Shown here: positions 43,916 to 62,819 of the stretch, piece by piece
Numbering within the stretch: position 1 is the first letter of the stretch
Layout of the letters: every line of letters begins with the position of its first letter
Source: a virus
Lineage: Duplodnaviria > Caudoviricetes
Virus record (IMG/VR): IMGVR_UViG_3300049043_000164
Span: 1,070 to 65,069 of that record
Length of the DNA: 64,000 bases
Direction: 5' to 3' (one strand)
Notes under the pieces: generated by a model
Seen by the model: the letters and a program-made list of their open reading frames with translations, nothing else
What the model was told of the DNA's origin: nothing
Databases searched by the model: none
Translations under genes and position numbers: made by a program

Positions 43916-44179
43916 ATCTTTTCTTTAGTTTATCTCCCCTAGTTCTTTTCTTTCATTAAATAAAACCAATATGCATTTCTAGAGTTCATATGAAACCGTT
44001 TACCGCTAAGTAACTTTAATTTTTTTTCTTCTAGTTCTTGAGCCTTTGTTTCGTTATACGGAAGCGTATCTCCGTTGTCACAAAGCATTGCCAACTCAAG
44101 ACTTACCATTTCAAGTTGAAGCTGAAAATCCTCTACGGCTTGCTCATGACAACGACACATGATGTGTGCATCATCAAGA

Positions 44180-44892
44180 TCAGTCGGAGGTTTCAAGTTC
44201 TGGTAAAAACTCTTCTGAATATTGGGATGAAAGATTGTCCATTCCTTTGGTGTGGACGATTCGATTTCGTTTGATGTTGTAGTCTTGTTGGATTTTGACG
44301 CCTTCTGGGAGTCGTTGCCCTTCTTGGTAAGCAATGCGGAGTTTGTCGACATTTGGAATAATTTCTGTTTTGGTTATCGGTGTAGTGGTGCATTCAATTA
44401 CTTCACCACTCATAGAAGTTACCACAGTTTCTTTGGTTGTGGTGACAGTTTGTTGCAAACAAAATTCATTGCGATCCGCTTCTTCCCATTCTTCCACTGG
44501 AATAGAAACCTCTACAGTTAAATCACGTTTTTTGCTAAGAACAAATTCATAATCTTTACCAACAATACGATTGGAATCTATTGGTGCAACACGTCTCAAC
44601 CAATTAATTAGCCCTTTAATCTTAGTAACTTGAGACTCGTGATGTTTGCGTGCTGTTAATAAAAGCTCTTGTTCTTTCTTTGCACGTTCTACCGCATCTT
44701 CGTGGTGCGCCCATGCGTAGTACAGTCTGTCAATTTTTCTGATCGAAGGGAAAGGCATTGCTCAAGTTCAGCTTTGACCAACTCCTGGGACTCAGAAGCC
44801 AATAAAGGAATAGACTTGTCCAGGGCAGCATAGTGTTCGTACAACTTAAAAATACTTAATTCTTTAAGATTTGTTTTGGTGATTTGAGTCAT
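44180..44892 (-). CDS. Gp157/Gam-like coiled-coil protein (frameshift near 44740)
   Basis: LSIFKLYE...SEK(I)DRLYY...ER...L..RK...KIK.L; C-terminal PNVDKL..A..EG..LPEGVKI. Confidence 0.55.
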
Positions 44893-45085
44893 TTGTTGTA
44901 AGAAGTTTTTTGATTGTAGATTCAATATTTTTTAATGCACGTTTATCACCTGATGTTCTAGATGTAGTAATAATTTTTCCAGAAGAATGTTTGAATATAA
45001 GATGACGCTTTTGTCTTAATAATGTAAAGCCATAAGACTTTGCAAGTTCAACAATGCGTTTAGTTGTATCAGAAGTCATTACCAA
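44864..45085 (-). CDS. HicA-like (dsRBD-fold) protein
   Basis: AKSYGF.LLRQKRHLIFKH.SG.IITTS.T..D.RALKNI. Confidence 0.55.
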   Translation of the reverse strand: MVMTSDTTKRIVELAKSYGFTLLRQKRHLIFKHSSGKIITTSRTSGDKRALKNIESTIKKLLTTNDSNHQNKS

Positions 45086-45191
45086 AGTGTGATTGAATTC
45101 TATTAATTACATAGGCCAGCAATGCTCCGCATGCTGTCCAAAGTAAATCTTTAACAATGGGAAGAATAGAACCAAGAATAGCTTCAAACAT
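45069..45191 (-). CDS. 40-aa hydrophobic protein
   Basis: MFEAILGSILPIVKDLLWTACGALLAYVINRIQSHFGNDF; lies downstream of pseudoknot copy 1. Confidence 0.55.
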   Translation of the reverse strand: MFEAILGSILPIVKDLLWTACGALLAYVINRIQSHFGNDF

Positions 45192-45213
45192 GAGTAGTAA
45201 TGAATTTAGTTGA

Positions 45214-45241
45214 TAAGCAGTTTAACGTCGTGCTTAGGACG
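45214..45241 (-). ncRNA. 28-nt pseudoknot leader element, copy 1
   Basis: - strand CGUC C UAAGCA C GACG UUAAAC UGCUUA. Confidence 0.75.
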
Positions 45242-45246
45242 ATAAC

Positions 45247-45609
45247 TTAAGCAACAAAACCAGGAATGGTATTTACAATATTAGAAACATAATCAACCAA
45301 TGCTTCTGTTTTAGCATTAACAGATTTAATTTCTTCCATCAATTCATCCCTGGTAGGACCCATCCCAGGATACTGATAGCGTTTAACTTCTTCGGGAGCA
45401 TGCTCTTGCTGAAACACACGAGCTTTTTCATCTGTTGCATAAGCAATCTCAGAGAACAGATTCCAAGTAAACTTTTCTCCTAATGATGCAAGCTGTACGT
45501 TATGCCTGGCAGCAACAAGAGCAAGTTTATTCAATGCCTGCAAAGCAAAGCTCAGCTCTTCCTTCAAATAATTCAAGGTACTTATCTTCAGGAAGACCGT
45601 AGGTTTCAA
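45247..45609 (-). CDS. hypothetical protein
   Basis: 120 aa ORF; stop 5 nt before pseudoknot copy 1. Confidence 0.5.
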   Translation of the reverse strand: MKPTVFLKISTLNYLKEELSFALQALNKLALVAARHNVQLASLGEKFTWNLFSEIAYATDEKARVFQQEHAPEEVKRYQYPGMGPTRDELMEEIKSVNAKTEALVDYVSNIVNTIPGFVA

Positions 45610-45857
45610 GAGTCATGGTTGTTAAGTGCGTCAGAAATTGCAGCTTGAAGAGAATCGGTAATAAATTGTTTTTGTTTTTCTTCTCCTAAGTTTGTCCACC
45701 ACTGGAGATCAGCATCATCTTCATCCCATTCAATTACGATAGTACCAGCTCCATCTTCTTCTTCTTCAATGTACTTAATGTTAAGTTTAAATACAGAAGC
45801 AGGATCAGCACATTCAAACTGCATTTGAGTCACATACTCTTTGTTTGTGTTTTCCAT
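45606..45857 (-). CDS. hypothetical acidic protein
   Basis: 83 aa ORF. Confidence 0.5.
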   Translation of the reverse strand: MENTNKEYVTQMQFECADPASVFKLNIKYIEEEEDGAGTIVIEWDEDDADLQWWTNLGEEKQKQFITDSLQAAISDALNNHDS

Positions 45858-46795
45858 GCGTTTTTTAATTGAGGAAGAGAAGTACCTGGAAATGGAACAA
45901 ATCCATTTTCTAACATGTTATCAAATAAATCCCAAACATGTTTTTGAGTGAAGACTTCTTTTGGTTTGTAGGTACGCCAAGCTTTAAGTGGAGCCATAGA
46001 GCCTTGTTTGGTGTATAGAACAATAAACCGCCCTTCATCTGATTTACCTTCTGGCGGCGCATACCACCAGGCCACAGCGTTTTCTGAAACTTGACCACGG
46101 CATTGCGAACGGACTTCACCACGTTTAACAAGAAGCTGACGATAACGTTGCATCCATGTTAAATGAATACACCAAGGTTTGTAACCTTCAATCTCAGTTT
46201 GAAACGTAGAAAGATTTTCTAATTGCCTTTGGAACGAACCACAAGAGCAGTATGGACTTGCCTGCAATTTCTGTACGCCATCAATTTCAGCATCCGACTC
46301 TGGTTCAGGAGCATCAAAGTCAATGGCATCATTAATCTCATGGAAACCATCAGGGGCAACCAGGTGCCCAAGATCAGTTTGATCTGATTGAAGTAACTGA
46401 ACAAGCTTGGTTCGATCTGAGATGTGAATAAATTTATCAACCCACGCACGCTGTATTTGCGCAGATTGCGAAAGGTATCCCAATTTATGGCTGTAGTGCC
46501 AACCTTTAAACATGATGTAGGCATTGTTTCGCCAGATTGATGGTCCACGATAGTTAGGCCCAAGATAGGAAAAGAAGTCTTTTAAACGAAAAGTAAACTG
46601 CTGGTACGCAGCTTTAACTAACTGCCTGTCATAAGTTTGTTTAGTACCATCATTACGCACTACAGTAACAAGAGTATCTTGTAAATGAATTGCAGCAATT
46701 TCAGTGTCATCAAACCCTGGAAATGCACGCCGTAAATTACTCTTGGTATAAATAAACTGTTGAGCTTGATTAAGTTGAGTAATTAATTCAGTCAT
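45830..46795 (-). CDS. SWIM zinc-finger-containing protein
   Basis: YCSCGSF...WCIH. Confidence 0.6.
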   Translation of the reverse strand: MTELITQLNQAQQFIYTKSNLRRAFPGFDDTEIAAIHLQDTLVTVVRNDGTKQTYDRQLVKAAYQQFTFRLKDFFSYLGPNYRGPSIWRNNAYIMFKGWHYSHKLGYLSQSAQIQRAWVDKFIHISDRTKLVQLLQSDQTDLGHLVAPDGFHEINDAIDFDAPEPESDAEIDGVQKLQASPYCSCGSFQRQLENLSTFQTEIEGYKPWCIHLTWMQRYRQLLVKRGEVRSQCRGQVSENAVAWWYAPPEGKSDEGRFIVLYTKQGSMAPLKAWRTYKPKEVFTQKHVWDLFDNMLENGFVPFPGTSLPQLKNAWKTQTKSM

Positions 46796-47011
46796 TGTTT
46801 TGATGTTGAATTGTATTTGGAATTGTTGTATACATCTTTAGTGATGCGATACGTACCCCAGATAGCAATAGCCATAGCTGCGGGCGTGCCTAGCATAGCA
46901 GCAATTGTGCCAGCAGCCAACCCAGTTGTTAGTCCTGCGGTAAATGCTGCCTTGTCTTCTGGTTTCATTTGTTTAGTTGTGTGTAGAATTAATTATCCTC
47001 CATGGTTAATT

Positions 47012-47275
47012 ATGGAAGAACATTACGTACCACTCAGTAAGTTTGATATTGAACCATCAATTGATGATTTATTTTGGGAAGAAAAAATTAAACGCTCAAT
47101 TCAGGATTGTAATTCCGTAAATGCATTGAAAGAAATGGCGACCCTTTTAGCAAGGATCGCCACACAACGTCAAGCTGTAATTAGAGGGTTAGTTAAAGAC
47201 ATCCATCTATTTAACAATGTGTTAATTGATACAAATGACATTGCTAACCCTGAACTTAAAACTCAAAAAGAATAG
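47012..47275 (+). CDS. small helical protein, possibly a divergent NblA
   Basis: IEPSIDDLFWEEKIKRSIQ...ALKEMATLLARIATQRQAVIRGLV; lone + strand gene in a - strand run. Confidence 0.4.
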   Translation: MEEHYVPLSKFDIEPSIDDLFWEEKIKRSIQDCNSVNALKEMATLLARIATQRQAVIRGLVKDIHLFNNVLIDTNDIANPELKTQKE

Positions 47276-48266
47276 TTTTCTCCTGTATCAGGATCTTGTG
47301 CAGATGCCAAGAGCTTAGCATCTACATCATTACCCCTGGACGCAGGAAGAATTTCAACTCCTTCTTTAATACCATAGGCACCACCTAATTTTTCAGCATC
47401 TTGTTTTGCGTGTTGATTGATGTAATCTTCAAACATCTCTTGGAATTTCCAAGTAGATTCCCGATCTTCATCAGGAATTGACATTTGATTCAATGATTCG
47501 ACAGCGGCTTCTTGGCTGCTGTAATCAGGGATACCAAAAGATTCAATTGCGCAGATCTCAACGTTGTTGGCGCCACGCATCTCATTGGCAAGTACTGGAG
47601 TAAATACGGTAGTGGCGTAAAACTTTTCATTGAATGCTAATGGAATTTCAGAATCCAGTGCTTTGCTCAAACACTTAGACATTTCTTTTTCATACAATTT
47701 AATTTTGTCAGCAGCATCTGTACCATTCAATCCCTTCAAAGTAAGGACCATTGGAATCTTATGTGCACGCTTATTCTCTTGCGTCAAAATATAAACAAGA
47801 TATTTTGTACGTACACTGTACCTACGCTTGTACATCTCTCCCTTGCTGTTAGCAAGATCAGATGCAGTTTTATCAGCTTCAAACAATTCTTTAACGGCTG
47901 GATCTTCAAAGGTACCAATCGTTTGCCTCATCCCTGTGGTTTCCTCAACCATAAGGGGAGAACGTAAAAGGATTTGAATTCGAGGCTCAGTAAAATTAAG
48001 TCCTTCTTCAACTGAAGTATTGGGAGCCATACCAAAAGTTTGCTTGTAGTTCCAGATAACTGAACCCTTAGCAAATTGATCTTCAGTGGCACTCCATCCA
48101 CAAGCATCAAGGTCTGAGTTCCGCACGAACCAACCTCGTGTTTTAGACTTGTTAAGGGGTTGAATTGTGACGAGGTTTTGATATCCCGATACAAACTTTT
48201 TGTCTTGAAAAAGTTTAAAAGATTCCAGCCCACGGTAGCTAGCGCAGATGTCTTTTTAGTAGTCAT
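47263..48266 (-). CDS. DUF5895-like cyanobacterial/phage protein (frameshifted)
   Basis: GWFVR..DL..CGW; GL.F..PR..IL.RSPL; RTKYLVYIL...N...H.IP.VLTLKG..G. Confidence 0.55.
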
Positions 48267-48372
48267 AACTTTTGCAGAAGTTTTAATAGTAGGTTCAGAA
48301 GTTTTTTAGTGTCAGAATCAGGTTGTCTCAGAGCATCAAGAATGGAGGTCATGATAGTTTTTTGTTGAGTGA

Positions 48373-48400
48373 TAAGCAGTTTAACGTCATGCTTAGGACG
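48373..48400 (-). ncRNA. 28-nt pseudoknot leader element, copy 2
   Basis: - strand CGUC C UAAGCA U GACG UUAAAC UGCUUA. Confidence 0.75.
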
Positions 48401-48736
48401 ATCAATCAAATCAAGATTATCAAGATTTCTTTAATTTTTACAAGCGCTTTTTGAGTATCTCTATATTCTTCAACAATTTCTTCCATGTAACTCATTGCAA
48501 ATTCTTTGGAAAACCCACAGCCGCTCATGAAGTTAATAAAAGAATCAATAACACCTGATCCAAGATTGGTATTAAATGAAACCATATAAGTAGTTTCATC
48601 ATCAATGTGTTTGAAGTTCGTAGTGATTGTAAATAGTCATTGGATTTAAAACGGAGGATCAGAGTCGTCGTTAACGCCGGACATAGCATAGCCTGGAAGG
48701 TCAGGAAGGGATGAGCCGTTTTGAGCCCCCCATGGT

Positions 48737-49459
48737 TCAGCAAGATCCTCTGCAACCTTGCCACCCCACAGAGCTACCGACATCCGTAGAAGATGCAACG
48801 GTTGTTTGAGCTGTGATTGGTTTTGATTCTGTGTTTCCCTTGGGAGCCAAAGTCATTGACACCAATTGAAGTTTAGTTAAATTCTTTTTCTCTTTAGTTT
48901 CTTTATCTACCCAAGAGTCAGTAACCAATTTCCCTTGAATAGTAAGACCAATTCCTTTACGCGTAAAGTTAACTAGCAGCTCTGCATTGTTTAACTTATC
49001 TTCTGCTGTATTAATTGCATAGAAGTTAAACAGATCTGCTTGATTCCTTCCTGTATTAACAGAAAGTGTTTGATTACAAATCATCAAACCATCTGCAGTT
49101 GTTTTAAATGCACGTGCATCTTCTTGATCAATATCTTTAACACAACGACCACTAAGAATAACAGTATTCAAAATTGGAAATGTAGTATCAACTTGAGTAA
49201 CAATTCCTCCTTGCAATGAATAAGTTTTGGAATTTAAATCATATCTAAGTTTTGAGCCATGAATGTAAATCTGTGCATTTGCCGGTACACGAGCAAAACG
49301 CTCAGCAGCTTTACCGTAGATACTAAGTTGAATTGGAGTTGGGGCTTTATTGCCTACAGGTGGCAATAAAAGATTACATACAGTTACAAAAGAATTTTCG
49401 CTAATAGCTTTTTCTTTTGGAACATCAATGGTTTGAGCACAAAGAAATGAAAGATTCAT
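48737..49459 (-). CDS. ssb: single-stranded DNA-binding protein with tandem OB folds
   Basis: N.VILSGRCVKD...NFTRKGIGLTIQGKLVTDSWVDKET.EKK; a second OB-like N-terminal half (IYGKAAE). Confidence 0.75.
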   Translation of the reverse strand: MNLSFLCAQTIDVPKEKAISENSFVTVCNLLLPPVGNKAPTPIQLSIYGKAAERFARVPANAQIYIHGSKLRYDLNSKTYSLQGGIVTQVDTTFPILNTVILSGRCVKDIDQEDARAFKTTADGLMICNQTLSVNTGRNQADLFNFYAINTAEDKLNNAELLVNFTRKGIGLTIQGKLVTDSWVDKETKEKKNLTKLQLVSMTLAPKGNTESKPITAQTTVASSTDVGSSVGWQGCRGSC

Positions 49460-49479
49460 TGGATCAGATGTTAGGTGGT

Positions 49480-49507
49480 AAGGCAGTTTAACGTCATACC
49501 TGGGACG
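49480..49507 (-). ncRNA. 28-nt pseudoknot leader element, copy 3 (ssb leader)
   Basis: - strand CGUC C CAGGUA U GACG UUAAAC UGCCUU (U-G wobble). Confidence 0.7.
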
Positions 49508-49513
49508 GAATCA

Positions 49514-49756
49514 TTACTTAATATTATTTAACTCTTCTGTACTTGCAATTTTTGTAACGTCATAATAACCATAACGCCCTTTAGCACTAACACGATAAAG
49601 ATAATTACCGTCTTGAATTAACTCGCTGCTATATGGAATTCTGCTAGCCATATCATCGACTTCATTCTTAAGAGCTCTTGCTTCATCAGATTTTTTTTGA
49701 TACTTTTTCCAAGCAATAAACAATTGTTTAAGAGTAGGTTTGCGTTTGGTTGTCAT
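49514..49756 (-). CDS. hypothetical protein
   Basis: 80 aa ORF. Confidence 0.55.
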   Translation of the reverse strand: MTTKRKPTLKQLFIAWKKYQKKSDEARALKNEVDDMASRIPYSSELIQDGNYLYRVSAKGRYGYYDVTKIASTEELNNIK

Positions 49757-51630
49757 TAGTGAGTATCAAACCATGTGTATCCTACCTTGGCATCGCCTTC
49801 AATAGGGCAACGGAATCCAAAGAATTGTTGCGCTGCGGGAAATGCATTTAACGCATGGTCCTTTAATGTTTCTACAAGATTTGGTTTACAGCTAATTTGA
49901 ATTTCATCATGGATCATTGCATTCTGTTGCCAATCAATTCCATATTGATAGTTAGTTTTCTCCATTGACTTATGTAAATTAATAACAACTTGTTTCATGA
50001 TTAATGCACCAGAAGATTGCAACAATACATTTAATCCTTTAAATTCAGATCTACAATAAAGAATACGTTTGTCTAATCCATACAACCAACCACGTTGTTG
50101 AATAGATGAAGAAATTTCACTTTTCAATCTTTTTAAAGCTGGTAAACCACGCATGAATGAATTAATTGCATTACTTCCTAATTCACGTAGAACTTCTGCA
50201 TCTTTTTCATTCGGATCAATAATTGTTCCAGCCTTTAAAGATCCACATCCATAAGCAATTCCATAGAGAAGACGTTTGCTTATGTCCCTGGTAGCAACAC
50301 CAAACATGTTTTGATTGTATGTATGAATATCAATATCTGGATTAGTTACAACAGATGCATATTCTCCGTTATCCCATAAAGCAAGATATCCAGCAAGGCA
50401 ACGTAACTCAAGTGCTTTGGCATCAACACCAATGAGAGACCACCCGTCAGGAGCATGGAATAAACTACGACACTCTTTTCCATATGATGAGTAAGCTGCT
50501 GGAACCTGACCCATATTTGGATTACGGTGTGCACAACGACCAGTAATGCAACCGTTAGTAACAAGATCACCGTGGATACAACTGGTGTCATTGTTAACAA
50601 GTTTTAGCCAAGCATTGTTACCATCAGCAATTTGACCAAGACGTTTTTCAATCAACATATATTCCGCCAATGGTTTAGCTTCTGGATACGGCAACTTTTC
50701 AATGACTTCATCATCAAGAATTGGATTACCTTTCTTGGTTAATTTTTCAGGTTGCCACCCGTACTTTTGTTTTAATCGATCAGTAATTTGCTGCCTGGAT
50801 CCAGGATTAAACTCTTCTATCTCTTACTTTTTCAAATGGAACACCTTTAACATAACCACGAGTTTTGTTATTTACTTTTGGTACAAATACTTCTTTATGT
50901 TCAATAGGTGGAAAAATTTCTTTTAAGTGTGTTGCAAGCTTTTGTTTCTTTTGTTCGGAGATCATCCACCAAATCAATACATGCATCAACATCAAAAGGA
51001 AAACCTGATCTAATTTGTCTTTCAATTGCCAAAGCAAAGTCATGCTCAAGTTTGAGCGCTGGTTCTGGATATTTTTGTTTTTGGATGTGCTGAAATAGTT
51101 TGTAGGTAACTGATACGTCTTGCCGACAATAAGTCGCCATCTCTTCTGAGTATTCAGAAAAATCCTTGAAGTCAATTTTGTAATCTGATAGACGATGACC
51201 CCAAGCTTTGAGCGATGCTGAACCACACAAGTTCTTTGGAACCTGCGTATATTGTTCTGTATCAAGTTCATAGAGTTTTTCCTTAGGCCAAATGAGTCGA
51301 GTACAAATAAGTGTGTCAATAATTCGTGCTGCACGAAATGAATAAAATGGATACAGTTTTTTAATTACAGCAAGGTCATAAAACAATAATATTATGGCCT
51401 ATTAATACATGACCGCGAGCCAGACACTCAAGAGCATCGTTAATGCAGTCAGGCCCATAAGTAGTAGTTTTGTTTCCGTAGATATCATGGATGACAATGC
51501 AGTGAATCTTAGTAACTTTGTCATAAAGATTATCAGATTCAATATCAAATACTAACCAGCGTTTAGTGTCTGAATTTGCCTTCATCGCAAACGTAGAGTT
51601 CTTCACTGGCGAGATCTGGTGCATTGTCAT
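49756..51630 (-). CDS. polA: family A DNA polymerase, T7-like, with 3'-5' exonuclease (frameshifted)
   Basis: VFDIES; GHNI; DTL; YCRQDV; TGRCAHRNPNMGQVP; DAKALELR; DIH; KRLLYGIAYG; LNVLLQSSGA; IHDE. Confidence 0.92.
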
Positions 51631-51797
51631 TAATCCAATCTAAGATTTGTGTTGCGCCAATCCTGTATGGATGGCAAAAAACTTTAGCTAAATCTGAATC
51701 AGATTCTACAGGAATTAAAACAAAAGAGTTTGTATTTGTCTCTGCACGAATGCAGTAATTTACATTGTCTTTACTTGTAGTAATAACGTAAGGCATA
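51563..51797 (-). CDS. hypothetical protein
   Basis: ORF from MPYVIT. Confidence 0.5.
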
Positions 51798-51999
51798 AAA
51801 GATTCAGGAAAGCCTGTTAAATAATACAAGCTTTCCTGTTGATTGCAACTATGTCATGACATCAATATTTTACTTTTTGTAACCAGTCCACTTGTTTTCT
51901 TTACGTCGTTTAGTTAATGCCTTCTGTGCATCTGACCCTTTACGTTGCACATTGTGAACAAGAAGAGCAAACGAATTATGACCAAAGCAATGATCATCG

Positions 52000-52632
52000 T
52001 CACTGATCAATCTCTAGTCCCATTTGCTCAGCCTGTTCTTCTGTGTATACCACATAAGCAACACGATAGAACACTTCTGGATACCTGGGAATCAAGTAAT
52101 CAAGAGTGCCGCCTACTGATGCAGTTAAGTACATGTTATCGGGAATCTCATTACGTTTTTCATACCACATTCCCAATGACTTTGTATATGCATACAATTT
52201 AAGTGTGGGGTTGTTACGTGCAACTTGCAACCAAGCATTGAAATACACCTGAGTCCAGAAGTCACCAGATTCATGAATGCGCAATAAATCATATTTAGAT
52301 TTAACAGGTTGCGCTTCATCAATTGAATGTTGAATCAAGGCAACAAGAGCGTCAGTCGGGTTGTCTGAAGCATACATGACCTCCTTGATTAGATCCCAGT
52401 TATGCCATCGACTATCACGAACGGCAGGTCTGGTTTCTGCCATAGCAGCAAAACAGCGATAGTCTTGCCAACTCGGACCATTTTCCTGGGGCAGATCAGT
52501 AATCTTTCCTGTGGTTCGATCAGCTAGTGTTTTACATACACCAGCGTGTGGACATGAATAGCCAGCAGGTAAACTAAAGATCAAACGTTTACCAAGCTTG
52601 GCATTACCAGTTGAAAAGTTAAGTAGTTTCAT
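52000..52632 (-). CDS. Gene88/GP88-like protein (radical-SAM-related fold)
   Basis: GNAKL...FSLPAGYSCP..G.C...CFA; RIHESGDF; YAYTKS. Confidence 0.7.
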   Translation of the reverse strand: MKLLNFSTGNAKLGKRLIFSLPAGYSCPHAGVCKTLADRTTGKITDLPQENGPSWQDYRCFAAMAETRPAVRDSRWHNWDLIKEVMYASDNPTDALVALIQHSIDEAQPVKSKYDLLRIHESGDFWTQVYFNAWLQVARNNPTLKLYAYTKSLGMWYEKRNEIPDNMYLTASVGGTLDYLIPRYPEVFYRVAYVVYTEEQAEQMGLEIDQ

Positions 52633-52679
52633 TAGTAATAAGTTAAGTTGAATACAAACACATTAGTAAAACTAATATG

Positions 52680-52707
52680 TAGATAGTTTAACGTCATATC
52701 CAGGACG
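52680..52707 (-). ncRNA. 28-nt pseudoknot leader element, copy 4
   Basis: - strand CGUC C UGGAUA U GACG UUAAAC UAUCUA (G-U wobble). Confidence 0.7.
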
Positions 52708-52887
52708 TAAGTGTAACACTACAAACTACATAAATCATGTAATCAATGTACAGTATTTGTAACAATAGATACAAAAGGATTAATTAGATGAAAACTGGAT
52801 TCATTATTTATTTAACCAACAAGAAAGCAAAAGAAGTTCGTAAAAATATTGAGCTTTCTCATGCAGCAAAACAATTAAGCAAACAAC

Positions 52888-53136
52888 CTACTGCTGTAAT
52901 GTAAGTTCTCCCATACGTTGTTCCCATTCTGCAGCCATGATTGCAGCAGAACGTAACGTAGTACTGAGTTTAATTGGTTTCATATCTTTCCAACAAGCAT
53001 AACGAATTGCTTGTCTAAATCCCATAGAGATATTGCCGTCACCTAATTTACGTGCAGCTTCAATCTCTTCTCTTGTCATGCGAATATTTACTGTGTAGTT
53101 ACGCCCTTTGTTTTTAGGTTGACGATCGCTTGGCAT
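52888..53136 (-). CDS. small putative DNA-binding (RHH-like) protein
   Basis: TVNIRMTREEIEAARKLGDGNISMGFR.A. Confidence 0.5.
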   Translation of the reverse strand: MPSDRQPKNKGRNYTVNIRMTREEIEAARKLGDGNISMGFRQAIRYACWKDMKPIKLSTTLRSAAIMAAEWEQRMGELTLQQ

Positions 53137-53449
53137 TGAATTAATTCTTGTAGAGGTTTGCAGTGTATTCCTCAAGGATTTGAGGTAACTCAGATTCAAA
53201 ACAAAGGCGTGCTTGTGCATGCTCACCTGTTGTATTGTTATCCCATTTCACTTGGTAATAAGTAGACTTAATACCATTGCGATTTTGTTTTTGACAAACA
53301 GAAACAATTATTCCATAGCGTTGTTTACAGTTCTTTGCAACAATTTCAGATTTCCAATTTGAAATGTAGGCAATAAATGTTGCTTTAGGTTTTTCAGCCA
53401 CTCGGTCCCCTGGTTGAAAACGCACAAACTTTTTGTGTTTACCCATTGA

Positions 53450-53662
53450 TTTGTTGTTTAATAAATGGTCTTTTACTTTTCCAAGACAATTGATACTTGG
53501 AAATTTCAACTTCGGGATACTGCAATGTATACCACCCAGATGATTACAACTATTACATTTTCTGCGTTGTATCAAATGACCGTTGTCATCTTGAGTGGTA
53601 GAAACAATGTACGTAAGTTTTAAATTGCATTGAGGACATGCAGTTTGTACAGCAGGCATCAC
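53450..53662 (-). CDS. NrdR-N-like zinc-ribbon protein (approximate; fused to the next ORF by indels)
   Basis: CPQC...IVST...QRRKCNSCNH. Confidence 0.45.
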
Positions 53663-54503
53663 TTTGTTTCAGTAAGTTCGTCAACAAGAATTGGTAAATA
53701 ATTTTCAAGCCATACTTCAACAGACTGTTGATCTTCAGCAGCAATCTTAGTTAATTTCCAAAATGTATCTTTATCAATTTCAAGATAAAGACGCATATCT
53801 CTATTAGTTAGAGTCATAAATTCAAGAGTAGATTTAAGTGTTGGATGTTGATTAAACATAGTTAATCATCAAGTTGTTCCACAAGCACGGCGAAGAATGT
53901 TTTCATGAGCAGCATCTAGGTTTGCATCATCCAAAATAATCAGCGCCTGCTCCTTCAAGCTCGGCGGTTTTCGGACGGCGAAACGTTGCGAAGACCTTGA
54001 CGATCTTGTTCATACATCAGATACTCACAACATGCATCCAGCTCCTGGTTAGCAGCCCAAGTGGTAGCTACTTCAACAAGCCAGCAAAGGCCAGTTTCAT
54101 CGTAACCAGTGGTATTGCGAACTGTACTAATCCACTGTTCTATTAACTCAGGCGGTGGAGTAATTGCGTTGTGGTCAGTCATTGTTTGGTTGTGTAATTT
54201 CGTTGAGTTGTAAAGCGTCAAGTAAATATACAGTTTGTTCTTCACCTAAAATCTTAAAAGAATCAACAATCAAATCTTGATTGTGTTCATTAAGCTAGTA
54301 ATAATCATCAAGAATTTCAATAGCACGGGCATCACCAGTTGGATTACCGTTAGCTTTTCAAGAATGTGAGTTGGCATTGCATCTACAATTGCATCGATTA
54401 ATTGTTCTTTAACAAGACTCCAGCTTTGAATAGGAATGTGTTTACATACTTGATCAACTAAATCCAAATTGATTGGTGGGCTTGGTTTGTTTGAAATCAT
54501 ATG

Positions 54504-54524
54504 AAAAGCCCCCATTGCTGGGGC
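54504..54524 (-). terminator. probable intrinsic terminator
   Basis: - strand GCCCCAGCAATGGGGGC followed by TTTT. Confidence 0.45.
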
Positions 54525-54932
54525 ACCGAACACATGAATAGATTAAGCTGCTTGTGCACTGGTGTCAATTGCTTTACCAACGACTCCAGACTCTTTTAAT
54601 CTATCAAGCATTTGACACATGATTGTTGCATGTTCGTGAGTCTTTTCCATAAAGGCCATAGCACGTTCCGCACTGATCGTGTGGACAGTGCCATTGGCTT
54701 CTGTGTATTGCCAACTACCATCGGTTGTGGCTGACCCTGGAGAGCAAGACGCTCTGAGTTACGAACGTACCTAAGTTCTAGATTGTGTGAATCAGTCAGA
54801 CCCTCTGGATCTGTCCAAGTAAGTCCGAGGTTATAACGCTTGTCCTCATCCATGAAAGCATGGGGTTGAGGAATGAGATGTTTAACAACAGAAAAGATTG
54901 ACATGATAGTTAAGTTAATTTAAATGTGTATT

Positions 54933-55018
54933 TGGTAGAGATGGTGGGACTCGAACCCACACGACCAAAGGTCAACGCATTTTAAGTGCGTAGCGGCTAC
55001 CGATTACGCCACATCTCC
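54933..55018 (-). tRNA. tRNA-Leu(TAA)
   Basis: Acceptor GGAGATG/CATCTCT, anticodon arm ACGCA-CTTAAAA-TGCGT, long variable arm GACC-TTT-GGTC, T-arm GTGGG-TTCGAGT-CCCAC, encoded ACCA end. Confidence 0.92.
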
Positions 55019-55228
55019 ATCACTTGGATTTACACTCACATCAATTGATGTGTGATACCAAGTGTGATCACTGGGCAAGACTTCCATACCATAAGCCCAC
55101 GTATCGTAATCTTCTTCGTTACGCGGATCTTCTTCAATCAATACATAGTGAGGTGAGTTGTCGTGAATAAATTCTCCAATGTTTGCCATGGCCATGGCTA
55201 GGAGTTGATCGTCTGTGTAGTTAGTCAT
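55004..55228 (-). CDS. acidic hypothetical protein
   Basis: 74 aa ORF; its last codons overlap the tRNA 5' end. Confidence 0.5.
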   Translation of the reverse strand: MTNYTDDQLLAMAMANIGEFIHDNSPHYVLIEEDPRNEEDYDTWAYGMEVLPSDHTWYHTSIDVSVNPSDGDVA

Positions 55229-55278
55229 TGGATAAGGCCAGCCTTACTCAATGAATAAGACTGGCCAGCCTGTGGGGG

Positions 55279-57018
55279 CTAAACAGATACTAGCTCAGAT
55301 TCACGTGCTTGGTAGCTTTGCTGAAAAGCTGTTGTGTACAGCTCTTGCTGCTCCGATGTAAGACTGGAATTTGAGATACCAACAATTTGTTTAACAGACA
55401 TCAAACCATTATTAACTTCAAGTTGAATTGTGAAGTTTGGTTTGCCGTCAATCAAACACAACACAATAAAGTGCTGTTTTTTACGTACACCTTCTGCGTA
55501 ATGTGCAGCGTTACCTACACAGTTACGTACTGCTTGTCCCCATTCACCCAATTGATGTGTATCAATCGGTTGAAAGAAAGACCAATTGTTGGAACCCAAC
55601 TGAATTTTAATAGGTTTTGGAAACAAGTCTTGTGGTAAAGCATGGTTTGGATTTTTAATCTTCCATGCTTCTGCTTGTACATAGTCATGGAATTCTTCAA
55701 TACGCCACCGTTTTGGTGGAACAAAATTTTGATGTTCTTCATTTCAAAAATTCGACAAAGCATTGAAATAGTGTCATGCCATTCATGAAACCTATAGACA
55801 TGGAGACCAAGGTTCTCGTCAAACACATAACGATATATGTTCTTTTCTTTAGCATTTTCAACTTCTTTTGTCATATTGTTTAGCAATAATTTGAAAGAAT
55901 GATGCAACAGGCATGTGCTTACAAAGCCAATCAGATACGGCAACCGTTGGAGTTTGACGACTAAAGTCAAGACCAATTAATTGATCAATGTAATTTTGAT
56001 AATAATCAATAGGGCAATCAGGCCAAATTCTATGGACACAATAAATACGAGCCAAAAGTTTCTTTATAATTTTCCATGGTCTATTAATGTAACCACGATA
56101 TTCATTTGTTACATCAAGATGCATTGCATTGACTTCATCACATTTTGTTTGAATCCATTTTCTAAAGAATGGTTTAGAAATAATATGGAGTATCTTGTTG
56201 TATGCTCTATATTCATCACCATCATATCCACTAGTGTGTGCATGATAAGTAATCAAGTCAAACAAATTTTCATATGAAGCTTTCCATGTTGATTTGTCAC
56301 AGTGTTGAAGCCAATACTCATCACTGACTTCTGATGATAAATTAAAAACAATAGAAGCAAGATTAGTTTTATTTACAATACGATCAAAGATGTTAGGTGA
56401 ATCTTTCCATATGGGAATTGTAGTTTTTAACTGTGACTCAAATTCTGAAATTATTTTACAAATATTTTTACCTTTTTGATAATAAGAAGCAGCCCCTGGA
56501 ATATTCCAATTGCGATTGATTTGTCCTTTACAGATTGATTCTGTGGTTACAAGTTCTTGATGTTGATACATCACAGAACGACTAGTGATTATTTGTTGAT
56601 AAGAATCAACTGAATTAATAATTACTTTAGGAATAATATCTCGAGCAGCTTTTGTATCTTTGAATGCAAAAGCATAGCCATATACATACTTATCTTCTTG
56701 TCCCTTGGGTGGTAGCCATGCAGCATACCAACATTGCTCGTAGTGATAAAGGATGGCAGTAACAATTACTTCACCATTAGTAATACGAGTGAATTTTTGA
56801 TGTCGATCAGATGCAGGACAAGAGTTGATGTTAGTAATAGCATCGTCAAGCATTGACTCACGCACCACATCAACAGGAATTAACCCCTTGGGATTACCAA
56901 GTGGATGTGTTGATTTTTTAGATTTAGGTTTTGAATTTGCATTTCTTGCCAGTTTCTTAAGCACTGGATCATATGCAATCAATTCAGTTTGTAAGTTAGA
57001 AGGTAGATGAAATAGCAT
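55279..57018 (-). CDS. PcfJ-like domain protein (frameshifted)
   Basis: C-terminal QP.D..QL..WG..VRNCVG..HY...FT.QL....V.QI.G.SN. Confidence 0.65.
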
Positions 57019-57046
57019 GGTGTGTTCGAAGTTAAGTTCAAAGTGT

Positions 57047-57074
57047 TGAGCAGTTTAAGGTCATGCTCAGGACC
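57047..57074 (-). ncRNA. 28-nt pseudoknot leader element, copy 5
   Basis: - strand GGUC C UGAGCA U GACC UUAAAC UGCUCA (compensatory changes in both stems). Confidence 0.75.
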
Positions 57075-57079
57075 AATGA

Positions 57080-57295
57080 TTAAAACCGCATAACTTCTTT
57101 ACCGTTGCAGGTAAAGACAAGTTGATCATAATGATCTGTTAAATACTCGTCCAAAGTTATTGTTCGATCTGATAACATAACTGGCATTTGATTAGCGAAT
57201 CCAAAGGCTGAATAAACTCTACCCTTGGGACCACGAATAACCAAATACCAACGCTTGAATTCAATTGAGAATCCAATCATTAATCTAAGCTCCAA
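57080..57295 (-). CDS. hypothetical protein
   Basis: 71 aa ORF; stop 5 nt before pseudoknot copy 5. Confidence 0.5.
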   Translation of the reverse strand: MELRLMIGFSIEFKRWYLVIRGPKGRVYSAFGFANQMPVMLSDRTITLDEYLTDHYDQLVFTCNGKEVMRF

Positions 57296-57537
57296 TCAGA
57301 TGTGTCAACGAGTTCCCACTGAAGATCGAGGTCAGTAAGATAATTACAGAAGTCATCTTCATTGGTTGGAATAGGTAGGTCTGGATCCAACTCAAAAGAT
57401 GTTGTACACAAAGCTGAAGTCCATTCTTCAGGATCGTCGCGAGTTGCTTTGAATAGAAGACGCATGCCTTCAACAACTGCTGTAACTGTGACATTAGAAC
57501 CATCAATAGTTGTGTTTTCAATAGCAAGTACTGCCAT
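57280..57537 (-). CDS. hypothetical protein
   Basis: 85 aa ORF. Confidence 0.55.
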   Translation of the reverse strand: MAVLAIENTTIDGSNVTVTAVVEGMRLLFKATRDDPEEWTSALCTTSFELDPDLPIPTNEDDFCNYLTDLDLQWELVDTSDWSLD

Positions 57538-57540
57538 AAA

Positions 57541-57738
57541 TCAAACCTCCATAAGTTCTTTGGGTTTCATGAATTGAGAATTAGGACCATACTTTTCTAC
57601 AAGATCAGGAAATGCATCAAGCAACCGTTGACGATTTACTGGATCTGCATAACGCAATGCTTGAGAAATACATGATACAAATGTACCACCATGAGATTCC
57701 ATCAAGGCAGTCATTGCAAAGAATTGAGCTGGGTTCAT
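57541..57738 (-). CDS. hypothetical protein
   Basis: MNPAQFF...GG.F...I..A...AD..N..RL..AFP. Confidence 0.6.
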   Translation of the reverse strand: MNPAQFFAMTALMESHGGTFVSCISQALRYADPVNRQRLLDAFPDLVEKYGPNSQFMKPKELMEV

Positions 57739-57759
57739 AAGATGAGTTGAGATAGAACA

Positions 57760-57787
57760 TAGACAGTTTAACGTCATGTCTAGGACG
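57760..57787 (-). ncRNA. 28-nt pseudoknot leader element, copy 6
   Basis: - strand CGUC C UAGACA U GACG UUAAAC UGUCUA. Confidence 0.75.
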
Positions 57788-57922
57788 TGATCAATGGTTA
57801 GTAATGGATATTGATAGTACTAATGAATAGTAGATATTAAGTAACGTAATAGAGATTGCTCCTGTGGTACTGGCTGTTACCAGGGGGTTATAGGGGGATC
57901 TTCATATTGTTTTAATGTTTCG

Positions 57923-58123
57923 TCAAAGTAGTTTGATGTTTCTTTTGGATAGGCCAGTGCCTGGAATACTAATAGACCCAAGCACACCCGACTCACGTGC
58001 ATTAAATGTTACTTGGAATGGACCAAGTTTAATTGATTTACTAAATGATTTAACACCACGTTCTGTGACGTTAAAGCCAGCGATTGTTTTATCGAAATTA
58101 AATAGTGATTTCTTTTGAGTCAT
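57923..58123 (-). CDS. DUF4236-like small protein
   Basis: SKSIKLGP...N....G...SISIPGTGLS. Confidence 0.55.
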   Translation of the reverse strand: MTQKKSLFNFDKTIAGFNVTERGVKSFSKSIKLGPFQVTFNARESGVLGSISIPGTGLSKRNIKLL

Positions 58124-58773
58124 GAGTTGTTTACAATGTCATCAACAATGTGATTAATAATTTCTTGATTGTCATCTTCAAGAATTTGATCTTGAATAAG
58201 TTGTTGGATTGATTCAGAATAATCACAGTTACTTACTGTGTATTCACGGCCATCAATTTCAATAATTTCTTTGTAAATAATTTGTTTAGTCATTTAGTTT
58301 GTTTGCGTTGATACAGTGTAAAGCCACGCATAGTCTTGGAATCAAGCATTGTCCAAGGCCCAATGTTGGCACAGCCAATCAAGTAATAACACTTGAAAAA
58401 ACCTGGGTGTTCATCCCATGTCTTCATCTGTAACCATAAGTTTGGATCCTGTACCAAACGTATTCTTTAGGTTAGATTCCCAGATGTCCCCTGGTTGAGC
58501 AGGAAGATTACTTGTGTCTTGTTTTGAATACTGAGGAGATTGTTTGGTTTTAGATTTAGATTGAGTCATGGAATTAACTTAAGTTGTTCTTGTTCTTTTT
58601 CAGTGAATGTTGAATACAGATATTCGAGAGCAAACATATCATCACTTGTTTTATCAAGAATGACATAAGCTCTTAACTTATCATGAGCAGTGATTGTTGC
58701 ATGGGGATGAGCAATTGTTTTAGCAACATCAAACAATAACTCATCATAAAGTTGTTGTTGTATTTTAGATAAG

Positions 58774-59148
58774 TTAGTCATTGTTGTAATCAATAGAATT
58801 GCGAGAAGCAATTACGAATTCAAGTACAAAATAATCATCATCTCCGTATACTGGAGCATGGTATTTAGCATGGAATCCACCAGAGCCTACTTCTTCCTTA
58901 TTTTTGATAGATTCTCGAAGTAAATGTCGTGCCATTGCTTTAAGTCTTTGGATTGATGGAATTGACATCCCATTGCCTTCAGTGCACACCCATTGCCAAT
59001 CAAGAGCAACCATGGCACACCTAACTCTTTCAAAGTTAAAGTTATCAATAATGTAATCAATTTGTTCTTCTGTTTTAATAGAGTTAATCAATGTATTGTT
59101 GCAATCTTCTGATTCATTAATCATAAAAAGTGATTTAGATTGAGTCAT
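58774..59148 (-). CDS. hypothetical protein
   Basis: IDYIIDNFNFERV...M.AL.W.W...SGGF. Confidence 0.55.
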   Translation of the reverse strand: MTQSKSLFMINESEDCNNTLINSIKTEEQIDYIIDNFNFERVRCAMVALDWQWVCTEGNGMSIPSIQRLKAMARHLLRESIKNKEEVGSGGFHAKYHAPVYGDDDYFVLEFVIASRNSIDYNND

Positions 59149-60118
59149 TGATTTAATTAGCTAAGTTTGATGATGATTAATGTTGCACAGATGATTGATA
59201 CGCAGATCACCACTGCTTCTTGTGTTGTCATTGCAGATGATCTGGCATGAGTATTTTGAGTATCTGCTTCGTTCATAGTTTGTCATTACAAATTTCTCTC
59301 CATTGGGAGCTACAAAGCCACCAATGAAACCAATTCCATTACGATCGGCAGCCTCTTTCATCTTGGCAACCACTTGCATGGCTTCCAATCTTTGGAGATC
59401 TACCGAGTCAGGAATACGTGGTTTATGTGAATCGTTAAGTGCAGACATTGTTTTGAATGGTGTGAGTTAATTGGACGTTGTTAGCTTACCACTATCTGTC
59501 AAGTGGAACTACTCATAACATGAGTTGTAACACCCATGACATGAGTAGGTTATTGAGAATGGTTCGCAATTAGCGATGGGCTTCTTGATGTTCTTTCATG
59601 CACGTAGTTACATGTATTAAACTAACGATGCATCTCTTGGTGTTCTTTCCAAGCTTTGCTGTGCATTTCATCCATGGTAATAGGTGGTTCACCATATGAA
59701 TCCTCGATATCACCAGGCCATTCAATTGCTTTCTCAAGAAGATCAATGGCTTCCAATAGTTGTTCTTCCGAACCATAAGGAAGATCATTGTATCCCAAGG
59801 GACGTTCTCTTCTCGTTCAACAATAGCTTTAAGTTCTTTAATCATGAGTTCAATACGTTTATCATCATGCATTACAAAAACTTTTTCAGTGCCATCTGAA
59901 AGTTTGTAAGTACGTGATTCAAAATGAAGTTGGGTTTGTGACATAGTAAAGATGTGGTTAGTTTAGAAATTAATCTTGGGACTTACACCACATAAAAGTG
60001 TGGATGCCCAAGATTTATTTAAAGGTTATTGCGAAAGATTCTCAATAACCTTTGTATTGGTTGATTAGCCAATACTTGAGTAGTATTGGTAGTTTCTTGT
60101 AGCTAAACAATACTTGAT

Positions 60119-60475
60119 TTAAATCAAGCCAAGAATCCTCAACCAACTATCTGGGTGATCAGGTTCTACTTCGTCACCTCCAGGGGTGAAGCAGACGCTA
60201 TCGAACGAATACTCTTCGATGTCTTCGTTGGTTGGGATGTCGTACCAACCCGTGAGTTCGTCCTTTTCCTCTGCCGAGTAATTGTCTCCGGCTGGAATCC
60301 AATAGCAGCGGAGGACTCCCTCTTTGTTTCTGTAGACGTTACCAGTGCAGGGGATTGCTCCCTTTGGTGCGTTCTGGAAGTCGCACTCTGCCTGGAACTG
60401 TTGCTGCCCTTCTTCTTCATCGAAGGGTTCGTAACCGAAGGAAGCAGCGATTTCTTGGGTGATTGGATGAAGCAT
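60119..60475 (-). CDS. hypothetical protein
   Basis: DSVC.TP.GD.VEPD.PDSWL.ILGLI. Confidence 0.55.
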   Translation of the reverse strand: MLHPITQEIAASFGYEPFDEEEGQQQFQAECDFQNAPKGAIPCTGNVYRNKEGVLRCYWIPAGDNYSAEEKDELTGWYDIPTNEDIEEYSFDSVCFTPGGDEVEPDHPDSWLRILGLI

Positions 60476-60553
60476 GAGATGAACTCCGTAATAATAATTG
60501 AAGTGATTGCAAGGATGACAATAATAATGTCATCAGTTAATTGAGAATTGTTC

Positions 60554-60757
60554 TCAAGAACCTTGGTCGTCGTCATGGATGACGCCCTCCCAATCTTGTG
60601 TGTTAGTTACTGTGAACCCAACGAATTGCTCATTGGCTTCTATCATTGTCCATTCACTTTGCGAAGATTCTATCATTGCTTGGTATTGCTCTTCTGCCAT
60701 ATCAGACATGGCATCAAGCAAGTCAGCGTTGTAGTTTTGATCAAGTTGATGTGCCAT
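60554..60757 (-). CDS. hypothetical acidic protein
   Basis: ORF from MAHQLDQ, downstream of pseudoknot copy 7. Confidence 0.5.
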   Translation of the reverse strand: MAHQLDQNYNADLLDAMSDMAEEQYQAMIESSQSEWTMIEANEQFVGFTVTNTQDWEGVIHDDDQGS

Positions 60758-60784
60758 TTGAGGTAGATTTGATGTAGTGTTTGT

Positions 60785-60812
60785 AGAGCAGTTTAAGGAC
60801 ATGCTCAGGTCC
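60785..60812 (-). ncRNA. 28-nt pseudoknot leader element, copy 7
   Basis: - strand GGAC C UGAGCA U GUCC UUAAAC UGCUCU (two compensatory changes in stem 1). Confidence 0.75.
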
Positions 60813-61487
60813 AATATTGTGATTACGAATTAATTGCAGGACTTACAGTTGTAATTACGGATAAGGAACAAAGTTTGATTCCTTACCAGTCAACTGTTGA
60901 ATCGTCACACAATGCTCTTGAATATCTTCAAGAGATTCGTAATCTTCTGTTTGGTTTTCAACGACTTCGCAACCGACATCTTCAAGTTCATCAATGAACT
61001 GAGACCATGAATTGGCATTGCCATAAACATGGGCATAGCGACCGGTTGCATCAGAGATTAGTGCTACGTAAGTCATAGGTTGAGTTGGTGTTAGTTCAAA
61101 GGGTCTGCGATCTGTTGCCATGACAAGTGCATGGACAGAATTCAGATCTCTGGTTGGCAAGCTCACCGTTTGGTTTCCACTTGAGAGCTGTGCTGAATAG
61201 GTACTCGCTTGGTGCCACCATCAAAATTAAATGTGCTGATATCGTAACCAAGCATAGCGCCTGTAGTGATAGCAGCAATGCTGGTGGCAGTGATAAAGAC
61301 AAGTGCTTTACCAACGAATGAAGCAGCTTTTTCACCCATATTCATAGTGTATGAATCAAGGTGCAAAAAACTGCGATCACTTAATTTAATAATGTGTTTC
61401 ATGATAATAAGTTAAAGAGTAAATAATCAACCTAACGGTTGATGGGCCAATAGTACTGTTGTACTAATAATGGTGGATAGCCAGGAG

Positions 61488-61904: not shown

Positions 61905-61988
61905 AATGTGTAATAAGTAAGATTGTGTGCAGGATGTTAAGTCCTGCAGAAACCCATCTTGTTACAGATGGGAATATGCAGGAATTAA

Positions 61989-62402: not shown

Positions 62403-62485
62403 TTGAATTGAATTGCAGTTGACTGTGTAGCAGGATAATAAATCCTGCAGAAAACCCTGGTGTTACTCAGGGTTAAGTGCAGGAA

Positions 62486-62728: not shown

Positions 62729-62819
62729 AGTCCTAAATGGGTTGAGTTGAATTGAATGCAGATATGAAGTCTGCAGAAACCCATCACCATTTAAAAACAG
62801 TGATGGGAATAGGCAAACA

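Follow-up and report, generated by a model that had tools for sequence, protein, structure and literature searches.

We studied a repeated element of 28 nucleotides (nt) in a 64,000-nt stretch of DNA (the window), bases 1070-65069 of the 65,069-bp IMG/VR virus record IMGVR_UViG_3300049043_000164 (Duplodnaviria; Caudoviricetes), with an estimated completeness of 81%. Seven copies occupy intergenic leaders of the minus-strand early/replication gene block in this cyanophage genome, which resembles that of Synechococcus phage S-EIVl. Judged from their sequence, they are very probably H-type RNA pseudoknots transcribed in the early/replication messenger RNAs (mRNAs), belonging to an octaloop Watson-Crick form of coremin (xrRNA_C), the Xrn1-resistant RNA of plant, fungal and invertebrate RNA viruses (PMC10520033). 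The known part appears to be the coremin-type exoribonuclease-resistant RNA (xrRNA), and the new part an octaloop Watson-Crick knot without the second coremin hairpin, present in DNA phages and bacteria and located in 5' or intercistronic leaders. A search of the open full-text literature, with subscription journals and supplements outside its scope, gave no report of this knot in phages or bacteria.

A preliminary description of the window had listed seven minus-strand copies with two interleaved stems, S1 and S2, in the fixed geometry S1(4)-C-S2(6)-Y-S1'(4)-TTAAAC-S2'(6). Exactly seven were found, all where they had been placed, and the geometry was verified in every copy (Table 1). S1 was CGTC/GACG in 5/7 copies, GGTC/GACC in one and GGAC/GTCC in another, whereas S2 had five distinct sequences. 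The single base of the first loop (L1), C5, and the TTAAAC of the third loop (L3) were without variation in 7/7, as described before. Both previously noted G-U wobbles were real, T10-G24 in the copy at 49480 and G7-T27 in the copy at 52680, and the outermost S2 pair 6-28 was unpaired in two of the seven copies. A covariance model run on both strands of the window scored the seven copies at 34-46 bits and the next best site at 12 bits; the model was partly trained on the window copies themselves, so the weight lies on the absence of further matches and not on the scores. A degenerate pattern applied to the full 65,069-bp record recovered the same seven sites only, with 0-2 mismatches and on one strand, and the 10-nt core alone was weakly enriched (20 occurrences vs 12.5 expected; 4/100 shuffles reached 20).

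Public viral contigs showed strong covariation of both interleaved stems over more than 200 instances. For the IMG/VR scan the pattern was fixed at the loops, at some S1 positions and at a single S2 pair, and at least 116 stretches matched it; the remaining S2 bases, on which it set no constraint, paired in nearly all instances, via many different sequences. In an alignment of 108 distinct instances, paired cells amounted to 91.9% vs 79.9 +/- 0.6% after shuffling, and the covariation score was 0.436 vs 0.192; in neither case did any of 500 shuffles reach the observed value. When the 3' partners were slid along the sequence, pairing dropped to 20-51%. Four to five pair types were present at each of the positions 1-16, 7-27, 8-26, 9-25 and 10-24, including strand-specific U-G and G-U pairs, and pair 6-28 was weak (60% paired in the same alignment).

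The pairs 2-15, 3-14 and 4-13 were fixed by the search pattern and the 108-sequence alignment is silent on them; for this reason pair 3-14 was examined separately by natural mutagenesis. The paired S1 variant GTCC..GAC was present in at least 116 IMG/VR stretches and the double swap GACC..GTC, also paired, in at least 119. Complete scans for the mismatched combinations yielded 13 stretches with GACC..GAC and nine with GTCC..GTC, numbers at chance level, and these sequences behaved like random sequence. All four inner S2 pairs were formed in 79/99 (GTCC..GAC) and 70/103 (GACC..GTC) of the distinct sequences listed, and together in 0/17 of the mismatched-S1 sequences. Both helices consequently form in the same molecule and the pseudoknot is real. 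Phages with a neighbouring protein 83-89% identical carried different, compensated S2 sequences at orthologous sites, which indicates that many independent events lie behind the counts. The covariation of S1 and S2 thus bears out the H-type pseudoknot with compensatory changes that had been proposed, and the strand-specific U-G/G-U pairs, together with a coding-strand bias (see below), agree with the proposal that it is read in the mRNA sense.

One contig (L200, see below) allowed a protein-coding reading of the element as C-P-E-H-D-V-K-L; it was rejected as an account of the element in general, given the intergenic position of the copies and the covariation of both helices. Since the 28-mer is conserved and lies upstream of genes and transfer RNAs (tRNAs), and after terminators, it could also be a DNA-level signal, namely a structured site in single-stranded DNA or the promoter of a phage RNA polymerase, and one sigma-70-like match ends 15 nt upstream of the copy at 48373. 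However, a T7-type RNA polymerase (PF00940) was present in 1/42 motif-bearing records and in 0/11 of those at least 90% complete, 121 aligned flanks showed no -35/-10 signal, and promoter-like sites were fewer than in shuffled sequences (36 vs 59.4). The rarity of the polymerase gene, the lack of a promoter signal, the covariation in two interleaved helices, whose G-U pairs are strand-specific, and the occurrence of the element in RNA viruses (see below), which have no DNA stage, largely refute a DNA promoter and make a DNA-level function extremely improbable.

Searches with Rfam 15 gave no match at the copies at gathering score, nor any up to E = 10 over positions 44000-64000, and none up to E = 1 at the motif in eight other loci. 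A likeness to the pistol ribozyme or to preQ1-I was without Rfam support. The preliminary view that the element is not a named family is right as regards Rfam, but the element is not unnamed, since it matches the published coremin motif GUCCGAAGACGUUAAACUAC (PMC10520033). According to the sections of that report cited here, the first coremin hairpin (hp1) is made of the pairs C1-G12, G2-C11, U3-A10 and C4-G9; its outer pair is dispensable, its C-G closing pair is required and pairing outweighs sequence. The loop consensus is YGAD or YGNNAD, and a natural octaloop ending in C resists Xrn1 nonetheless. The spacer UUAAACUAC lies directly 3' of hp1, with A16-A20 essential, and it is the presence and not the sequence of the second hairpin (hp2) that matters. 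Xrn1 stops 1 nt 5' of hp1. The same sections describe the coremin structure as unsolved, its authors suspecting a non-canonical pseudoknot. A Watson-Crick coremin (xrRNA_WCC) with a 3-bp canonical loop-spacer helix, for which loop nucleotide 5 is needed, has been described as well (Dilweg et al. RNA Biol 2023, PMC10321173); in the corresponding sections of that paper hp2 was still needed for Xrn1 resistance, whereas frameshifting was stimulated without it.

All the invariant or near-invariant positions of the phage form (G2, U3, C4 and C5; A11; G13, A14 and C15; U17, U18, A19, A20, A21, C22 and U23) coincide with coremin. S1 corresponds to hp1 (nGUC/GACn), with the C-G closing pair and a variable, dispensable outer pair; an hp1 of this type, with at least 3 bp and the C-G closing pair, was present in 7/7 window copies, the invariance of C4-G13 having been fixed by the search patterns. 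The bases C5 and A11, found in 7/7 copies, correspond to the Y and the A of the YGAD loop, and the last loop base was U in 6/7 and C in 1/7. The second loop base differs, being U or C in the phage form, never G as in coremin. The spacer UUAAACU is identical and was present in 7/7 copies; the base that follows, G in 6/7 and A in 1/7 where coremin has an essential A, is part of the covarying S2 pair 10-24 in the phage form. Both elements have a minimal size of ~28 nt. In contrast to coremin, the phage loop has 8 nt, and its inner 5-6 bases pair canonically with the bases directly 3' of UUAAAC-U, which replace the ..AC of coremin. The result is a canonical antiparallel loop-spacer pseudoknot of the xrRNA_WCC type, with covariation at 4-5 S2 pairs, and this helix takes the place of the second coremin hairpin. 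No hp2 was evident in most window copies: the 30 nt downstream fold at 0 to -1.3 kcal/mol in 5/7 copies, another has one weak hairpin (-1.9), and only the copy at 52680, which has the weakest S2, carries directly 3' a stable hairpin resembling hp2 (-6.8 kcal/mol).

Among the eukaryotic RNA viruses of IMG/VR, the same octaloop form was found between the RNA-dependent RNA polymerase (RdRp) and capsid open reading frames (ORFs) of picorna-like viruses. In two of these loci (L101 and L113) a picorna-like helicase/protease/RdRp ORF precedes the knot and another large ORF follows it; in a third (L030) the ORF 3' of the knot matches a dicistrovirus capsid and forms a cluster with the corresponding ORF of L101. 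In a further locus (L125) the knot precedes a tombus-like coat gene. Occurrence of the same form in RNA viruses establishes that the element functions as RNA. The likeness to coremin extends to location, both being found intergenically in front of capsid ORFs and also in 3' untranslated regions (UTRs). The phage form is found in 5' or intercistronic leaders and not in 3' UTRs, and its hosts are bacteria and DNA phages, without Xrn1.

Table 1. Copies of the pseudoknot and other features of the window (positions of the 64,000-nt stretch; distances refer to the direction of transcription)
Feature	Coordinates	Strand	Sequence or stem	Score (bits)	Upstream neighbour	Downstream neighbour
Copy 1	45214..45241	-	CGTC-C-TAAGCA-C-GACG-TTAAAC-TGCTTA	44.0	stop of ORF 45247-45609, 5 nt before	ATG 45191, 22 nt after (40-aa hydrophobic ORF, 45069-45191)
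Copy 2	48373..48400	-		46.4		ATG 48352, 20 nt after (DUF5895-family gene)
Copy 3	49480..49507	-	S2 CAGGTA/TGCCTT, U-G wobble	41.4	stop of ORF 49514-49756, 6 nt before	ssb (48737-49459), 20 nt after
Copy 4	52680..52707	-	S2 TGGATA/TATCTA, G-U wobble	41.8		GP88-family gene (52000-52632), 47 nt after
Copy 5	57047..57074	-	S1 GGTC/GACC	44.1	stop of ORF 57080-57295, 5 nt before	ATG 57018, 28 nt after (homologue of S-EIVl 585-aa protein)
Copy 6	57760..57787	-		44.3		ATG 57738, 21 nt after (small ORF, 57541-57738)
Copy 7	60785..60812	-	S1 GGAC/GTCC	34.0		ATG 60757, 27 nt after (small ORF, 60554-60757)
abiF RNA (RF03085)	39584-39620	+		55.7
tRNA gene (83 nt)	54936-55018	-		56.2
DNA polymerase A	49756-51630	-
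Homologue of S-EIVl 585-aa protein	55285-57018	-
DUF5895	47263-48352	-
GP88	51858-52632	-

The distances from the copies to the following gene starts ranged from 20 to 47 nt, as given before; the copy before the GP88-family gene also has an earlier ATG at 16 nt. The closest cultured relative of the window, the Synechococcus phage S-EIVl (870 nt at 81% identity), also has seven copies, at positions syntenic with those of the window; the replication genes of both are syntenic and the protein identity ranges from 45 to 82%. The S-EIVl site orthologous to the ssb-linked copy shows a compensatory G-C to A-U change. The DUF5895-family gene is a homologue of the S-EIVl 368-aa protein, with its reading frame broken in the window, and the relatives of the 585-aa protein have a PcfJ-like C-terminus. 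In copy 7 the pair 3-14 is doubly compensated, from U-A to A-U, and the class to which it belongs, GACC..GTC, is itself abundant in IMG/VR.

The genomic context of the element followed simple rules. The strand with more long-ORF cover carried the knot in 100/125 cases and the opposite strand in 4/125, 21/125 being unclear. The distance from the preceding stop codon had a sharp floor at 5 nt: among 126 instances it was exactly 5 nt in 28, 6-8 nt in 23 and less than 5 nt in four. The distance from the knot to the next start codon had a floor at ~19-20 nt. For the window, a stop 5-6 nt upstream had been reported at three copies; the spacing was confirmed but it was found at 4/7. Given the usual footprint of the ribosome, these floors may correspond to the closest sites that escape the entry channel of a terminating ribosome and an initiating 30S subunit. 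The leaders in the window are C/A-rich, with 0-2 G in 16-28 nt (e.g., minus strand 45192-45213, 48353-48372 and 60758-60784; 0 G in the 22 nt after copy 1) and no evident Shine-Dalgarno sequence. Depletion of G reached ~17 nt past the knot (121 instances), and the 121 aligned flanks held no information beyond the stop codon. The G-poor flanks fit an avoidance of competing pairings, and the context rules point to a structure kept folded on the mRNA between ribosomes.

The knot might be a roadblock or insulator for ribosomes, which would stop sliding or post-termination ribosomes or modulate termination, uncoupling cistrons or pausing at the end of an upstream ORF. The sharp floor after stop codons speaks in its favour, as does a tiny ORF with a strong Shine-Dalgarno sequence before 52/122 of the bacterial knots listed, whose stop is often inside the knot. 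Moreover, the sections of the coremin literature cited here describe a block to scanning ribosomes and a stimulation of -1 frameshifting by coremin in vitro, and a screen of its variants in E. coli. The 5-nt floor is, however, explained equally well by a knot that merely avoids the terminating ribosome. Many copies have no nearby ORF end, with gaps that often measure 40-200 nt, and some are found just after terminators or directly before tRNAs. A slippery heptamer X XXY YYZ 4-9 nt upstream was found at 0/7 window copies and was not enriched elsewhere (8/125 vs 3/125 in a control window), and a -1 frameshift stimulator was rejected on these counts. A ribosome roadblock seems to us unlikely.

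The function that we favour, tentatively and by analogy with coremin, is that of a directional mechanical roadblock that may protect the downstream cistron from 5'-to-3' decay. The fold is compact, its L1 having 1 nt and its A-rich L3 running beside S1, and would obstruct the mRNA in this way. Once the mRNA has been cut upstream or its 5' end converted, decay in the 5'-to-3' direction, by the exonuclease RNase J and/or by 5'-end-dependent tracking of RNase E, would halt at the knot. The downstream cistron (ssb, the DUF5895 and GP88 genes and others in the window, scaffold genes elsewhere) would persist, stable and translatable, with the knot at its 5' end. We favour this roadblock because coremin blocks a 5'-3' exonuclease, because xrRNAs are described in the cited part of a review as generic blocks that stop bacterial RNase J1 too, and because genes downstream of the knot are needed in bulk. 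Its location before ssb in the window, and elsewhere before scaffold genes, tRNAs and the capsid ORFs found in RNA viruses, agrees with a demand for abundant product, and RNase J is present in the Synechococcus elongatus control genome. The preliminary description had offered a 5'-3' exonuclease block, a translation enhancer and a protein- or ligand-binding operator. The match to coremin favours the first among them; we infer the block to bacterial nucleases itself and the stabilising effect, beside the observed sequence identity with coremin, covariation, RNA sense and spacing relative to ribosomes. The second does not agree with knots located 2-4 nt before tRNA genes.

Several observations weigh against protection from decay. 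In every published construct, xrRNA_WCC included, hp2 was essential for Xrn1 resistance, and frameshifter knots of similar size do not resist Xrn1, both according to the sections of PMC10321173 cited here; since at least 5/7 window copies have no hp2, resistance would have to stem from the longer S2. RNase J was not enriched, 28/50 motif-bearing genomes being over the cut-off vs 8/14 controls, and the 22/50 without a good RNase J match include a coherent group of small Omnitrophota-/Planctomycetes-labelled metagenome-assembled genomes (MAGs), to which incompleteness may contribute. Protection of mRNA offers no obvious explanation for the knots 2-4 nt before tRNAs, for those immediately in front of terminators or U-runs at some loci, or for those in bacteria into which the stop codon of a tiny ORF extends. 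These tRNA-, U-run- and tiny-ORF-associated copies suggest further or different roles.

The distribution of the knot extends well beyond the relatives of the window. Records similar to S-EIVl had 3-6 copies, always on one strand, while unrelated phages, including complete genomes of 36-150 kb, had one or two copies each; only 38 of the 116 IMG/VR loci listed had proteins in common with the window. In other phages the knot was often a few nt past an intrinsic terminator, and it was followed at 13 and 7 loci by head-scaffold genes, which belong to two unrelated families. Cultured Firmicutes phages with a copy at the scaffold gene were searched for, with two weak Latilactobacillus phage matches only, in the coding part, and none for a Bacillus locus. 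At one locus (L097:4965-9424) 28 nt separate the knot from an apparent N4-like virion RNA polymerase gene downstream, whose product exceeds 1,468 aa and combines Phage_Mu_F and RNA_pol domains.

Such a scattered distribution bears on whether the knot is an operator for a trans-acting protein or ligand, i.e., the mark of a phage regulon, of SSB autoregulation as with gene 32 of phage T4, or of a riboswitch. Its invariant loops, the several copies in one expression block, the copy before ssb and a small architecture resembling preQ1-I and T4 gene 32 would suit an operator. The lack of a shared protein and the unrelated gene contexts disfavour it: most of the loci listed have no protein in common with the window, complete unrelated phages have 1-2 copies, bacteria and eukaryotic RNA viruses have the motif too, the genes that follow it are unrelated in function, and no Rfam riboswitch matched up to E = 10. 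In addition, the cited sections on coremin state that it works with pure nuclease and no added factor (PMC10520033). An operator is therefore decidedly improbable, and the phage-specific regulon or gene 32-like operator of the preliminary description, with 1/7 copies before ssb, is not upheld.

The knots beside tRNAs raise another alternative. At five loci (L013, L017, L026, L038 and L100) the knot was 2-4 nt before a tRNA gene and at one (L090) 0 nt after a tRNA. A folding insulator, i.e., a fast-folding autonomous knot that isolates the downstream RNA (mRNA leader or tRNA), could account for them, and also for the G-depleted flanks, and so could a processing mark recognised by a universal endonuclease (RNase P or RNase E, for instance), in the way that tRNAs punctuate some polycistronic RNAs; the spread over many phyla speaks for a partner that is universal, if there is one at all. 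Nothing resembling a tRNA-like acceptor/T-arm or CCA was seen, however, and the coremin literature, in the sections cited, describes a nuclease block and not a cleavage site (PMC10520033). We regard insulation or processing as rather improbable.

The scan of prokaryotic genomes, with one genome per species, gave at least 122 instances, and all four inner S2 pairs were formed in 81 of the 122 listed vs ~2% expected at random. Carriers were Bacillota, Planctomycetota-/Omnitrophota-labelled MAGs, Desulfobacterota-like lineages, Zixibacteria, Patescibacteria and others. The tiny ORF mentioned above has 16-27 aa and ends in ..AHC[KSGD][EDGS]G[CH], with its stop just before or inside the knot (e.g., L150:4607-4681, minus strand). 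It was conserved at the codon level among Omnitrophota-/Planctomycetes-labelled MAGs, Desulfobacterota-like lineages, Zixibacteria and Peptococcaceae, and NCBIfam had no family for its peptide. These loci were often upstream of an Rrf2 regulator, which was the next gene at 11 of them.

A Selenomonadaceae MAG contig (L200:1-4100) had three exact and several degenerate knots within 4 kb, one with a compensated S1 (TGCC/GGCA) and some followed directly by an intrinsic terminator. The same contig had three twister-P1-like matches below gathering score (36-41 bits, E 2e-5 to 3e-4), each ~120-170 nt 5' of a knot or adjoining one. A second conserved sequence of ~45 nt was found 3' of the knot in unrelated contigs (L029, L035 and L104, ~10-60 nt on; L200:3073-3120 and 3585-3630); it had no Rfam match at E <= 1 in L200.

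U-rich tracts or terminators immediately 3' of the knot, at L130, L142, L196, L197 and L200, and the many knots just past terminators would be expected if the nascent knot acted on transcription, by way of RNA polymerase or Rho, as an attenuator or terminator with U-runs or as a block to Rho. Yet a U-run followed 0/7 window copies, whose leaders are C/A-rich, and RNA viruses carry the same element; also, cyanobacteria are not known to have Rho. An action on transcription is quite improbable.

Other features of the window were recorded (Table 1). An abiF RNA, scored above the Rfam gathering score of 37, sits where the plus-strand gene block turns into the minus-strand block. The tRNA gene, identified with Rfam, is within the early block and has no adjoining pseudoknot, in contrast to the tRNAs of other phages. 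Several window genes appeared broken relative to S-EIVl: DNA polymerase A aligned piecewise over three frames, the homologue of the 585-aa protein had an out-of-frame stretch of ~50 residues with six stops, and the DUF5895 and GP88 genes changed frame. These breaks could be assembly indels or real decay.

It is possible, and we propose it with reserve, that the knot represents the first exoribonuclease-resistant, mechanically active RNA class native to bacteria and DNA phages, sharing one fold with coremin, so that the same 28-nt knot would stop 5'-3' decay across domains. The covariation would also disclose the long-sought tertiary contact in coremin, in which the loop pairs with what follows UUAAAC and hp2 stands for the outer S2. 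The xrRNAs have been seen as a means by which eukaryotic RNA viruses counter Xrn1; if the proposal holds, programmed nuclease resistance, or RNA roadblocks more broadly, would extend to prokaryotes, phage biology would gain a class of intercistronic mRNA stabiliser or insulator, and synthetic operons a portable part of 28 nt. The phage copies offer hundreds of natural compensatory variants that define the helices of the structurally unsolved coremin. S-EIVl and its Synechococcus host are in culture, which makes the idea directly testable.

Among known systems, the gene 32 operator of phages T2/T4 is, in T4, one autoregulatory site to which the product of the gene itself binds. Like the knot described here, it is an H-type pseudoknot in a 5' leader, with a 1-nt loop crossing a stem of 6-7 bp, and one window copy also precedes ssb; unlike it, the knot has seven copies before unrelated genes and occurs in bacteria and RNA viruses as well. 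This comparison is one of architecture only. The ring-type xrRNAs of flaviviruses and of tombus-/luteo-like plant viruses, as described in the cited part of the literature, have the same proposed role of a directional block to 5'-3' exonucleases, but they measure 45-70 nt and form a ring around the 5' end, which is not evident in the 28-nt knot. The -1 frameshift knots of luteoviruses, of the beet western yellows virus (BWYV)/potato leafroll virus (PLRV) type, are closer in size; they share a compact body of ~28 nt, a conserved C within a short L1, a junction base that is extruded and an L3 rich in A that runs along S1, and the coremin authors likened its dimensions to theirs in the cited sections of PMC10321173, which also report that the BWYV knot is not Xrn1-resistant. 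They differ in their conserved sequences and in the slippery heptamer upstream, which the phage knots do not have. The xrRNA_WCC has hp1 and the spacer in common with the phage knot, and its loop and spacer likewise form a canonical antiparallel pseudoknot (PMC10321173, sections cited); its S2 has ~3 bp formed from a tetraloop, whereas that of the phage knot has 5-6 bp formed from an octaloop.

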